Source of the DNA: Geobacteraceae bacterium
GTDB lineage: Bacteria; Desulfobacterota; Desulfuromonadia; Geobacterales; Geobacteraceae
Direction: 5' to 3'
Assembly: GCA_028683555.1 (NCBI GenBank)
Contig: JAQUHN010000002.1
Location: 1,233 to 65,232 of the forward strand
Length of the DNA stretch: 64,000 bases
The notes under the pieces: model-generated
Database searches by the model: none
Seen by the model: only the letters and a program-made list of their open reading frames with translations
Told to the model about the DNA's origin: nothing
Program-made: the position numbers and the translations under genes
Shown here: in pieces, positions 38,190-43,597 of the stretch
How the letters are laid out: each line of letters opens with the position of its first letter
Position numbering within the stretch: position 1 is the stretch's first letter

Positions 38190-39440
38190 TCAGCTCATGT
38201 TTTTGACCAGATAGCTGGTCAACTGGCCGAGGCAGTTTACATAGCTGCCGTATTCATTGTCGTACCAGCCGAACAGCTTCGCATGGGTTACCGGTATTTG
38301 AACTTCTGCGTCAGTCGACACGCCGAGGCTCTGGAGAGTTTCCTGCGGCAGGTTGATGAAACCGGTCCGGGTGTGGGTTTCGTGTCCCTCGATGACCACC
38401 GCGGCTGGCATGCCGATCAAGTCGGATGATACATTCTGGCGCTTGCTGTAAACGAGCAGATCTTTTTGCGATCCCTCGCCTGCTTTGCGGTAAATTTCGT
38501 TCAGCAGGTCATGGGTGATGACCGGCTCGCCCGCCTCGTCCAGCGGAGTGTGGAAGGTCAGGTTGAGAATGATCAGCGACACGGTGTTGGTGGGGATGCG
38601 GACTGAATCCGCCATGAACCCGACCCGCTTGATCTCCGGCATGACCTTTTCAAGGGCCTTGGCGGAACCGGTGGTGGACAGGATGATGTTGTTCATGACC
38701 GAGCGGTTTTTGCGCAGGTCGGAGACCCCGGTCTTCGGTACCCCGTCAAGGACGCTCTGGGTGTTGGTCGCTGCATGGATGGTGGACATGGACGCAGTCA
38801 GGATATTGGATGTTTCTTTGTTGTCCAGCAGCGGTTTGATCATGTGGGCCAGTCCGGTGGTGGTGCAGGAGGCGGCGGAAATGATATGGTGCCGGCTGGG
38901 GTCGAAGTCGGTGTGGTTGATCCCCTGCACCAACAGAATGCTGTCGTCGGGCAGCGATTTGGTTTTGTCCTTGATTTTGAAGGGGGCTGATGCCAGGACT
39001 TTTTCCGCGCCAGCTTCCAAATGGCCGCGGAGACTGCCCGATTTATGGTCGGCAGGCAGGGTTGGGTCAAGGAACTGGCCGGTGGTTTCCACCACGAAAC
39101 GAACCCCTTCTTTTCTCCAGGCGATGTCTTTCGGGTTTCTTGCTTCGCGAAGAATCTTTACCGTAATTCCATCAACATCGAGTATTGCCTGGTCGGCATC
39201 AACAACGCTGATTTCGCATTTGCGGGAATGACCATAGAGAAATCTGCTCAGGCTGCCATAGGTGGAATCGGTTTCGATTACCTGGACAATGTCGTCAAGG
39301 CTCTTGCCTACTTCCCTTCCCGTGTTTACGATGATCGTGTCGAAGTCTCTGGTGAGAAGGTGATTCCACAGGGTCAGCTTCCCGATGCGTCCCAGCCCGT
39401 TGATGCCCAACGGTTGTGATGACTTGTCGCCTGCACTCAT
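38190..39440 (-). CDS. glyceraldehyde-3-phosphate dehydrogenase-family oxidoreductase (long, 416 aa)
   Basis: GINGLGRIGKLTLW Rossmann motif. Catalytic SAASCTTTGLAHMIKPL. STIHAATNTQS...NIILSTTGSAKALEKVMPE. Confidence 0.8.
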   Translation of the reverse strand: MSAGDKSSQPLGINGLGRIGKLTLWNHLLTRDFDTIIVNTGREVGKSLDDIVQVIETDSTYGSLSRFLYGHSRKCEISVVDADQAILDVDGITVKILREARNPKDIAWRKEGVRFVVETTGQFLDPTLPADHKSGSLRGHLEAGAEKVLASAPFKIKDKTKSLPDDSILLVQGINHTDFDPSRHHIISAASCTTTGLAHMIKPLLDNKETSNILTASMSTIHAATNTQSVLDGVPKTGVSDLRKNRSVMNNIILSTTGSAKALEKVMPEIKRVGFMADSVRIPTNTVSLIILNLTFHTPLDEAGEPVITHDLLNEIYRKAGEGSQKDLLVYSKRQNVSSDLIGMPAAVVIEGHETHTRTGFINLPQETLQSLGVSTDAEVQIPVTHAKLFGWYDNEYGSYVNCLGQLTSYLVKNMS

Positions 39441-39493
39441 TGTTACCCTCCTTATGATATGTCTGTCCGGATTCGGTTTGTTGCCGAAATCCG

Positions 39494-42400: not shown

Positions 42401-43597
42401 CGGGTTGCATTCGATCAGCTCCATCCAGACCCTGATGCTCTTGATGTGGTTTTTGTCGATACAGACCTGCCAGTCCTGGTTGATGCCGAAGACGTTCCCC
42501 GGTACGAAGCCGAAAGAGATGAGCCGGTCGATGAAACTGTTGATGATGGCTGGGTTTCCCAGTTCGATGACTTCTTTGCCGAGGGTCAGGACACAGTCCA
42601 GAAGCGTCCCCATGTGATCGCCCTTCTGGGATTCGAAGAGATGAAAAATCCTTTCGAGGAAGGTTTTCAGCTCTTTTTCGGTGCAGGCGCTCTTTACAAT
42701 GCGAAGCATCCGGTTGAGATCCCAGAGCAAATGGTCTTTCAGATGGGCCATGCCGGGCAGGCTCAGCAGGTAGAACAGGTAGTAGATGCGGTCGAGAGCG
42801 GGCTCCTCTTCGTCCATACAGCTGCGGAAGCGGTTGGCGATGCCGGAGAAATCGGCTACCTGCTGGAGTTCCGCCCAGGTTGCCGCTTTGGCTAGCTGTC
42901 TTCGCAGTTCGGCGAAGAAGGGTTTTCCGATATGGGTGATGCGCGGCGTCATGTCGGAGCGGAACAGGGATTTCTTGTTGGACAGCCAGGATTCGATGGA
43001 ACTGCTCTTTTCCCAGAAGTCGATGTTTTCCTTCAGGGCCAGGCGAAGCATGCCGAGCGCGGTATCGGCATAACGGGGATCATCGGCCAAATGCTTCATC
43101 CGCTCCTTCATGAATCCGGAAGAGCGCACCATGACATAGCGGTTTATGGCAAAGGTGTCGTGGAGCAGGGCTACGACTTCTTCCGTGAGCTGGTGGGGCG
43201 CTTTTTTCTGCCGGTGCAGCAGGTCGGCGAATTCCAGCAGCGTCTGAAATGCTCTTTCCTGTTGTTGGTCCGGGAGCGGGAGCCGTAACAGAGACCCGAA
43301 AATCTCCAGGAGCATTGTCAACGGTTTTTCGTTTTCCGGCAGCGATAGATAAAACCAGAGGTCGTCCAGAGCCATTTTGCGTAACAGATCAACCACCAGT
43401 TCCGGATTGGAGTAGGGGTGGTGATATTCCGTTATCAGTTCTTCCGCCCGCTTATGGATCCCGAAGTGGCTGCGGGACAGGGAAAGAAACCATTGATGCT
43501 CGGGCGGAATTTCAATTTTTCGCCGGGTGACGGCCAGGTTCACTTCAAGCGCTTTGGATACGAATTTTTTCATCTTAGTGTCCGACATAGTCATCAA
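39494..43597 (-). CDS. 1367-aa protein: novel ~875-aa N-terminal region + PPDK-type ATP-grasp + phospho-His swivel domain, with no PEP/pyruvate barrel
   Basis: The C-terminal ~490 aa align by eye to the N-terminal two thirds of pyruvate phosphate dikinase: [109 protein letters not shown] (His codon at 39686-39688). The protein ends about 60 aa after the His domain. Confidence 0.8.
   Translation of the reverse strand: [1367 protein letters not shown]

Follow-up and report, generated by a model that had tools for sequence, protein, structure and literature searches.

A 64,000-nucleotide stretch of a Geobacteraceae genome (contig JAQUHN010000002.1; hereafter, the window) carries on its minus strand a pair of genes encoding proteins of 1,367 and 416 amino acids (aa). 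The first protein, called here the dikinase, is related to pyruvate phosphate dikinase (PPDK) and has lost the phosphoenolpyruvate (PEP)/pyruvate TIM barrel. It carries instead a new, strongly conserved N-terminal helical domain that matches nothing in Pfam, NCBIfam, or PDB. The second protein is a long paralog of glyceraldehyde-3-phosphate dehydrogenase (GAPDH), and the two genes form one conserved cassette, in what looks like an obligate partnership. We tentatively read this cassette as a 3-phosphoglycerate (3-PG)/1,3-bisphosphoglycerate (1,3-BPG) dikinase with a dedicated GAPDH, acting in parallel to phosphoglycerate kinase (PGK), a possibility to which we give somewhat less than even confidence. 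The wider proposal, that of a widespread new enzyme of lower glycolysis or gluconeogenesis in which such a dikinase, with a new helical acceptor domain, works in complex with its own GAPDH, is more doubtful.

The original prediction, made from the sequence alone, had described two open reading frames (ORFs) and quoted several motifs in their products. Both ORFs exist, on the minus strand, and all the motifs were found again in the translations. It had also placed PPDK-type ATP-grasp and swivel domains in the last ~490 aa of the dikinase, for which the matches in Pfam, PDB, and NCBIfam are far beyond chance. PPDK_N (PF01326) matched residues 920 to 1223 (2.2e−31) and PEP-utilizers (PF00391) residues 1271 to 1350 (3.3e−15). 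Two motif blocks lie at residues 896 to 906 and 953 to 968, followed by LQTRD (1213 to 1217) and GGATSHAAV (1299 to 1307). The best sequence matches in PDB are PPDKs, with the enzyme of C. symbiosum at 1e−74 over residues 879 to 1226, and the swivel domain matches the PPDK central domain (2fm4) at 4e−18. In a residue-level alignment with C. symbiosum PPDK (1kbl), K883 and R955 of the dikinase correspond to K22 and R92, E1197/E1199 to D321/E323, Q1214/R1216 to Q335/R337, and T1302/H1304 to T453/H455, and the SMPG loop and YRRF are kept too. The catalytic set of the ATP-grasp domain (K883, R955, E1199, Q1214, and R1216) is invariant or nearly so in the family. Since all the catalytic residues of the first step and the TSH motif are kept, the half-reaction in which ATP and inorganic phosphate (Pi) give AMP, pyrophosphate (PPi), and a phosphohistidine (His~P) probably works as in PPDK.

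The rest of a PPDK is missing. The chain stops 63 aa after the catalytic His1304 (codon at positions 39686 to 39688), close to the ~60 aa given by the original prediction, and its end corresponds roughly to PPDK residue 517, which lies in the second linker, before the barrel. The linker from the ATP-grasp domain to this His is ~30 aa shorter in the alignment than that of PPDK. A search of the dikinase for the PEP-utilizers_C barrel (PF02896) gave no Pfam match at E ≤ 0.1. The NCBIfam equivalog model of PPDK (TIGR01828) scored 372.7 bits, against a cutoff of 843.45, and was matched over model positions 12 to 335 only; the PEP synthase model scored 79.1 bits, which agrees with the earlier view that the protein derives from PPDK. 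The AlphaFold2 (AF2) model of residues 168 to 1367, with a predicted local distance difference test (pLDDT) score of 85.8 and a predicted template modeling (pTM) score of 0.69, was aligned by Foldseek to PPDK (1KBL/1DIK) over ~545 columns only, at a root-mean-square deviation of 3.1 Å (E = 9e−31), and Foldseek found no barrel-containing relatives beyond these shared dikinase domains. The dikinase is labeled “pyruvate phosphate dikinase” in databases and cannot be one. Neither it nor the GAPDH paralog matched the PADLOC models of anti-phage defense at E ≤ 0.01.

The ~875 residues that precede this module had been called apparently helical and not assignable to any family, a description that the structural models bear out. 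The AF2 model of residues 1 to 880, built with 42 homologs (pLDDT, 83.7; pTM, 0.75), shows ~50 helices, one beta-hairpin, and three short strands (five short strands in total). This confident all-helical model excludes a TIM barrel in the region. Foldseek found no match to it in PDB at E < 1e−3, and its weak neighbors are alpha-solenoids (importins, CAND1, and SF3B1) with TM scores of 0.10 to 0.18. A profile search of PDB with a 26-sequence alignment of the N-terminal region returned only designed helical repeats (E ≥ 0.004), and the NCBIfam scan of residues 1 to 875 had no match. Pfam at E ≤ 0.1 gave noise only (Ku_PK_bind at 0.0027 and PI4K accessory at 0.025, both below the cutoff), and a known domain or barrel in these residues was rejected.

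The helical domain is 40 to 50% identical across phyla. A deep alignment (A4), which takes in clades at 25 to 35% identity, revealed as invariant E57, H60, H384, D422, E462, G463, R466, D473, R478, D480, R487, K488, H491, K593, Y594, K661, H663, S670, Y672, G673, E813, R817, and D830. These residues cluster in four motifs, one of them FLRKQxHxESNN. In all, ~21 polar or charged positions of the domain are invariant across clades at 25 to 50% identity, a pattern more to be expected of a site for catalysis or binding than of a passive scaffold.

The family is large. A word-indexed search with the dikinase retrieved 1,691 relatives, and at least 570 species carry one (one genome per species was scanned). 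Nearly all of the best 120 of the 1,691 relatives are 1,320 to 1,389 aa long; three have 899 to 1,177 aa, one of which is labeled partial by NCBI. An exhaustive phmmer search of 1.84 billion representatives with the N-terminal domain gave 488 clusters at 50% identity (182 of them at E ≤ 1e−30). The full-length matches were all of 1,335 to 1,540 aa and the shorter ones look like fragments, so that a free-standing N-terminal domain, or one in other fusions, was rejected. The carriers are mostly anaerobic bacteria. They include metagenome-assembled genomes (MAGs) of Geobacteraceae, with 82 to 87% identity to the window protein; Clostridia, Oscillospiraceae, Syntrophomonadaceae, Acetobacterium wieringae, and Sinanaerobacter; many Bacteroidales, Lentimicrobium, and Marinilabiliales, including rumen and fecal MAGs; Cloacimonadota, Atribacterota, CSSED10-310, Calditrichales, Ignavibacteria, Chlorobiota, Dehalococcoidia, and Fibrobacter; and Desulfobacteraceae (strain NaphS2) and Magnetococcus marinus MC-1. 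The same architecture is thus present in the independent isolate genomes of MC-1, NaphS2, A. wieringae, and Sinanaerobacter. The MC-1 protein (ABK44898.1; UniProt A0LAA5), annotated as “pyruvate phosphate dikinase,” is a divergent member.

Among seven divergent members compared with Pfam, five had both PPDK_N and PEP-utilizers. The other two, P0175 and the 1,140-aa P0164, showed a weak PPDK_N match near the cutoff and no PEP-utilizers match, and their C-terminal architecture was not confirmed. The sole extra domain seen in the family is an occasional N-terminal hemerythrin (HHE), present in the divergent P0175 (locus L086, 6001 to 10368) and P0182 (L081, 1166 to 5788), which hints at control by O2, iron, or redox state. 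Only one of these two hemerythrin-fused members is still paired with a long GAPDH; its counterpart has no GAPDH gene downstream. No fusion of dikinase and GAPDH was found among the top matches on either side.

The partner protein had been described as a GAPDH-family protein with an intact SCTT Cys and TIHA His, encoded 53 nt downstream, and the distance is exactly that. It matches Gp_dh_N (PF00044; 1.1e−13) and Gp_dh_C (PF02800; 3e−23), and both Cys192 (38865 to 38867) and His222 (38775 to 38777) are kept in 45 long paralogs. Alignment with the T. thermophilus and T. aquaticus GAPDHs and comparison with the family consensus showed that the equivalents of Cys149, His176, Thr179, Arg195, Thr208/Gly209, and Arg231 are all kept, a set of residues that would imply acyl-phosphate chemistry on a phosphate-tailed substrate. 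We propose that the protein is a catalytically competent phosphorylating GAPDH paralog.

It is not the ordinary Gap. Its score on the type I equivalog model (TIGR01534) is 302.6 bits, below the cutoff of 367.2. Seven insertions, amounting to ~80 aa, are conserved in 45 long orthologs, the largest (~25 aa) lying near the C terminus. Asp32, which confers a preference for NAD+, is absent: V-N-T-G-R stands opposite canonical I-N-D-L in the alignment, and its Gly-Arg is kept across the long GAPDH family. The protein may well use NADP(H), because Asp32 is missing and a conserved Gly-Arg follows that position. Long GAPDHs are 53 to 95% identical to one another and 20 to 37% identical to the neighboring canonical GAPDHs; NCBI names their homologs only “GAPDH NAD-binding domain-containing protein.”

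The association of the two genes was assessed in 80 dikinase loci, whose 1,012 ORFs were clustered all against all. Only two clusters were broadly conserved, the dikinase and the GAPDH family, the latter being found in 73 of the 80 loci. In 52 loci a long GAPDH (at least 56% identical to that of the window) lies directly downstream on the same strand, and in 11 of these the dikinase gene is itself preceded by a short GAPDH gene whose stop codon overlaps its start codon, which makes a three-gene operon. Another 21 loci have only a short GAPDH, usually divergently transcribed and ~100 to 150 nt upstream of the dikinase. Three short GAPDHs that were sampled (two divergently transcribed ones and one lying 2.6 kb upstream in L020) scored 430 to 445 bits on TIGR01534 (cutoff, 367), and the short GAPDH in the divergent arrangement is, by its sequence, a bona fide type I enzyme. 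Seven loci had no GAPDH-family match, two of them on incomplete contigs. LepA, a type IX secretion system protein, and ABC transporters were rejected as conserved neighbors, since they are lineage-local only.

The pairing, whose absence the original prediction had named as grounds for abandoning the idea, is kept across phyla and in the deep clades, at 26 to 34% identity. The MC-1 dikinase is followed by a 411-aa GAPDH paralog, and a GAPDH partner is also present in a seawater relative at 33% identity, another relative at 26%, and one hemerythrin-fused member. Reciprocal look-ups from the long GAPDH found the dikinase gene immediately upstream in three of three cases. The pairwise identities of the dikinases and of the GAPDHs are correlated (r = 0.92 over 47 loci, a value not corrected for shared phylogeny).

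The public database names, “pyruvate phosphate dikinase” and “glyceraldehyde 3-phosphate dehydrogenase,” would suit an ordinary PPDK lying by chance beside an ordinary Gap, or a misassembled or fused ORF. The domain analysis refutes an ordinary PPDK with an ordinary Gap: hidden Markov models and structure find no PEP/pyruvate barrel, and the PPDK score is far under its cutoff (372.7 versus 843 bits). Moreover, the same architecture recurs in the 488 clusters and in independent isolate genomes, and the synteny with GAPDH goes far beyond chance. We therefore give this explanation virtually no credence.

Some loci have a richer gene content. In the 11 three-gene loci (L014, L035, L038, L051, L052, L057, L060, L067, L074, L075, and L077) the GAPDH-family gene that overlaps the dikinase start encodes 332 to 337 aa. 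The third GAPDH of L014 (8978 to 9976) diverges strongly, scoring 198 bits on TIGR01534 and carrying the active-site motifs TCTGN and LHPY, suggesting that some cassettes hold two noncanonical GAPDH paralogs. In four Bacteroidota-like metagenome contigs (L091 to L094), HydF and a radical-SAM [FeFe]-hydrogenase maturase are encoded upstream of the cassette and a flavodiiron protein (Lactamase_B/ODP/flavodoxin) downstream.

One locus bears directly on function. In L087 (6001 to 15628 of the locus, from a 3.3-Mb genome) the gene order is dikinase, long GAPDH, canonical gap, pgk, tpiA, and secG, and this adjacency to gap-pgk-tpiA would place the cassette in lower glycolysis or gluconeogenesis. Among 89 loci (L001 to L089), no other has pgk or tpi adjacent. 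The cassette of L087 lies downstream of an rpoN-hpf-ptsN-rapZ-PTS(Man) cluster. With canonical gap and gap-pgk-tpiA as neighbors, the likely substrate is narrowed down to that of the GAPDH step, with which a metabolic and a regulatory reading are both compatible.

In the mechanism that we favor, the ATP-grasp domain of the dikinase would phosphorylate His1304 at the expense of ATP, also taking up Pi as PPDK does, and would release AMP and PPi. The missing acceptor function would be supplied by the helical domain, by the docked GAPDH, or by both. The loops of the helical domain that carry the invariant Arg, Lys, His, Asp, and Glu residues would form the acceptor site and probably also the surface on which GAPDH docks. 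The phosphoryl group would then pass from His~P to the carboxylate of 3-PG, giving 1,3-BPG, which the paired GAPDH, probably using NADP(H), would reduce to glyceraldehyde-3-phosphate. We infer that the metabolite linking the phosphoryl-His to GAPDH is this acyl phosphate, and the same applies to the choice of acceptor, the direction of the reaction, the preferred cofactor, and the binding of the two proteins to each other. In the forward direction the cassette would be a gluconeogenic bypass of PGK, driven by the conversion of ATP to AMP; in reverse it would make ATP from AMP and PPi during triose oxidation. Textbook hydrolysis energies lead to a rough value of about −5 kJ/mol for the reaction 1,3-BPG + AMP + PPi → 3-PG + ATP + Pi, which is near equilibrium, as is the analogous PPDK reaction. 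The gluconeogenic direction fits the NADP-type signature of the long GAPDH and the many carriers that assimilate acetate, fatty acids, or CO2.

Several observations weigh against the 3-PG/1,3-BPG mechanism. In the models, the 875-aa helical solenoid looks far oversized for 3-PG and resembles a protein-binding platform. PGK coexists with the cassette in at least one genome (that of L087), so that the cassette does not replace PGK there. Hemerythrin domains, fused to some members, are commoner in sensory and regulatory proteins than in central enzymes. The AF2 conformer of residues 168 to 1367 has its His domain docked on the ATP-grasp domain and not on the helical domain, and no contact of the helical domain with this His domain was seen. 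Several of the invariant motifs are the lowest-confidence loops in both AF2 models, unordered alone and beside the C-terminal domains; conserved yet unordered loops are nonetheless what is expected if they close over a ligand or partner. Five informative loci have no GAPDH gene in the flank, namely, those of A. wieringae, a related Firmicutes MAG, two Bacteroidales MAGs, and one Atribacterota MAG (L018, a short contig). Finally, the region was found in DNA metagenomes only and in no RNA run; the metagenomes in which the organism of the window occurs come from sludge, hydrocarbon, sediment, and landfill.

The main rival explanation, which we find unlikely, is phosphotransfer to a protein. The dikinase would then be an ATP-driven analog of Enzyme I of the phosphotransferase system (PTS): the solenoid would dock the GAPDH tetramer and His~P would phosphorylate a GAPDH residue, which would regulate GAPDH or else protect or repair its oxidation-prone active site, perhaps as O2 or the redox state changes. 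In its favor, the large helical domain has only protein-binding solenoids as structural neighbors, and recognition of a protein would easily explain why the partners are of three kinds (long, short divergent, and canonical GAPDHs). The fusion of some members to hemerythrin, which senses O2 or iron, and the flavodiiron protein that adjoins the cassette in some loci point the same way, as does the precedent of Enzyme I, in which the same swivel domain serves a protein bound on a helical subdomain. However, the dikinase has no likeness in sequence or fold to the HPr-binding subdomain of Enzyme I, and no conserved phospho-acceptor was identified on GAPDH. The long GAPDH keeps its full catalytic set under strong constraint, which fits a working enzyme and not a mere target, and the ~21 charged invariants in flexible loops look more like a site for a small molecule or a phosphoryl group.

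The departures of the long GAPDH from type I enzymes raise the question of whether it is a specialized dehydrogenase, in which case the cassette would carry out the activation and reduction, or the oxidation and phosphotransfer, of another phospho-acid or aldehyde (e.g., C4 or C2). Such a route is the general proposal of the original prediction, which had named a phosphotransfer regulator of the GAPDH paralog as the other option. Its score below the equivalog cutoff and its seven family-specific insertions would be consistent with this. Erythrose-4-phosphate dehydrogenase shows that the GAPDH fold takes other phospho-aldehydes, and enzymes with PPDK_N and swivel domains, such as rifampin phosphotransferase, phosphorylate unrelated small molecules by means of helical third domains. 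Nevertheless, in 21 loci the sole partner is a short GAPDH, mostly passing the type I threshold, the cassette adjoins gap-pgk-tpiA in L087, no genes of any other pathway are co-conserved in the 80 loci, and the Ps and Pi anion sites of the long GAPDH are unchanged. Another substrate is, in our view, quite improbable.

The features of the locus are listed in Table 1. The two genes are probably cotranscribed as one transcription unit, since the spacer between them bears a ribosome-binding site and a terminator scan found no terminator in it, and a strong terminator follows the second gene. The hairpin of this terminator has a folding energy of −29.3 kcal/mol (z = −7.5; none of 200 shuffled sequences was equally stable), and it closes both the dikinase-GAPDH operon and the convergent heat-shock genes. 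The start codon of the dikinase is uncertain: TTG at 43597 and ATG at 43594, 43588, or 43573 (Met9) are equally possible, and the TTG is doubtful because the alignment of the homologs begins only at residues 9 to 14.

Table 1. Features of the dikinase-GAPDH locus (window positions; residue numbers refer to the dikinase)
Feature	Position	Strand	Evidence
Long GAPDH paralog gene, 416-aa product	38190..39440	minus	Pfam, NCBIfam, PDB alignment, comparison with family consensus
53-nt intergenic spacer	39441..39493	minus	Shine-Dalgarno AAGGAGGG, no terminator (sequence, terminator scan)
Bidirectional intrinsic terminator (A6, 18-bp hairpin, T6)	38130..38166	both strands	RNA fold and sequence
Dikinase gene, 1,367-aa product	39494..43597	minus	ORF list, translation, Pfam, NCBIfam, 1,691 homologs of about 1,360 aa
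N-terminal all-helical domain, residues 1–875	40973..43597	minus	AF2 model; no Pfam, NCBIfam, PDB, or fold match
Invariant motif DTDLFQRD, residues 422–429	42311..42334	minus	Alignment; low-confidence loop in both AF2 models
Invariant motif EIGAEGELR, residues 458–466	42200..42226	minus	Alignment
Invariant motif, residues 485–498	42104..42145	minus	Alignment
Invariant motif, residues 661–673, beta-hairpin/loop tip	41579..41617	minus	Alignment; pLDDT below 50 in both models
PPDK-type ATP-grasp nucleotide-binding domain, residues ~876–1226	39920..40972	minus	PF01326, 1kbl alignment, Foldseek
Short linker and swivel phospho-His domain, residues ~1227–1367	39497..39919	minus	PF00391, 2fm4 match, alignment

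The genes surrounding the pair look unrelated to it, and no pgk, tpi, or second gap was found within the 64-kb window. On the plus strand, a heat-shock cluster (35766 to 38059) with two HSP20 genes, a DnaJ/CbpA-like gene, and a MerR_2 (HspR/CbpM-like) regulator converges on the operon and shares its terminator; this adjacency is not kept in other loci. Upstream of the dikinase, on the other strand, are genes for PNPOx-like, FIST, and DUF4388/Roadblock proteins, and a UPF0182 gene is also among the neighbors. The latter, a 901-aa ORF (32752 to 35457), wholly contains on its opposite strand a permuted tmRNA called by ARAGORN (34326 to 34835, plus strand). This call is most likely a false positive, since the ORF matches UPF0182 in Pfam at 2.5e−290 and Rfam finds no tmRNA there. 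Farther away, a run of small plus-strand genes (47673 to 52019) includes a DUF4388+Roadblock/LC7 gene, a putative ParA/MinD-like ATPase (50636 to 51451; KGGTGKTT, recognized by eye only), and further Roadblock-like ORFs, and appears to resemble a regulatory GTPase or ATPase module of the MglB/Roadblock type. A full-length T-box leader (RF00230) lies at 18915 to 19129 on the plus strand (125.4 bits; gathering score, 93), in what is otherwise a Geobacteraceae-like genome.

The copy in the window is an ordinary member of an uncharacterized family whose sequences are already public under a misleading name, and thousands of “pyruvate phosphate dikinase” database entries are mislabeled in this way. 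Searches of the literature by function, gene names, and accessions found nothing on the dikinase-GAPDH family, although a study outside the corpus searched may exist. Glycolysis and gluconeogenesis are considered to share the GAPDH/PGK step as their invariant core. If the cassette acts at this step, it would represent a new coupling of energy through AMP and PPi, instead of ADP, in energy-limited and mostly anaerobic bacteria, and models of flux and ATP yield for syntrophs, fermenters, and metal reducers would need revision. It would stand to PGK as PPDK does to pyruvate kinase, or the PPi-dependent phosphofructokinase to the ATP-dependent one. If the dikinase phosphorylates GAPDH instead, it would be a new ATP-driven, Enzyme I-like protein phosphotransfer controlling a key redox-sensitive enzyme. 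Cultured strains can supply the proteins for a direct test, for instance ABK44898.1 of MC-1 and the GAPDH paralog encoded downstream.

Compared with known systems, the cassette belongs to a known superfamily and differs by a new third domain and a new partner. The dikinase shares with PPDK (EC 2.7.9.1; C. symbiosum 1KBL/1DIK) the ATP-grasp and swivel phospho-His domains, at ~32% identity. PPDK has a C-terminal TIM barrel, whereas the dikinase has its 875-aa helical domain before the ATP-grasp and a GAPDH as its conserved genomic partner. Rifampin phosphotransferase, PigC/RedH, and PEP-synthase-like dikinases also combine ATP-grasp, swivel His, and a third domain that binds the acceptor and is not a barrel. 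In the dikinase, unlike in these enzymes, the third domain is N-terminal, and their acceptor domains have no similarity to it. Accordingly, the models NF041857, NF052631, and NF052632 score only 32 to 41 bits on the dikinase (E = 1e−8 to 1e−11; cutoffs, 999 to 1,350), and a Foldseek match to 5HV1 (4e−5) runs through the shared domains, the N-terminal model alone giving none. We know of no dikinase of this type that is paired with a dehydrogenase.

The swivel phospho-His domain of Enzyme I of the PTS belongs to the same Pfam family as that of the dikinase and phosphorylates a protein docked on a helical subdomain. Enzyme I is charged by PEP through a TIM barrel, whereas the dikinase would be charged by ATP, and neither the PDB profile search nor Foldseek found similarity of the dikinase to that subdomain. 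Type I GAPDHs (GapA/GapB) share with the long GAPDH both Pfam domains, the Cys and His, the Ps and Pi sites, and the C-terminal WYDNE; they differ in having ~335 aa, compared with 416 aa and seven insertions, and in retaining the Asp32 that is replaced in the long form. To our knowledge, every known route from a carboxylate to an aldehyde through an acyl phosphate consists of a kinase and a phosphorylating dehydrogenase (PGK/GAPDH, aspartate kinase/aspartate-semialdehyde dehydrogenase [Ask/Asd], ProB/ProA, and ArgB/ArgC). Under our proposal the cassette would follow the same logic, from carboxylate to acyl phosphate to a Cys-dependent phosphorylating dehydrogenase, by analogy only: PGK is a direct kinase that turns ATP into ADP, whereas the dikinase would work through a His swivel, from ATP to AMP with a link to PPi, and the two are not homologous.

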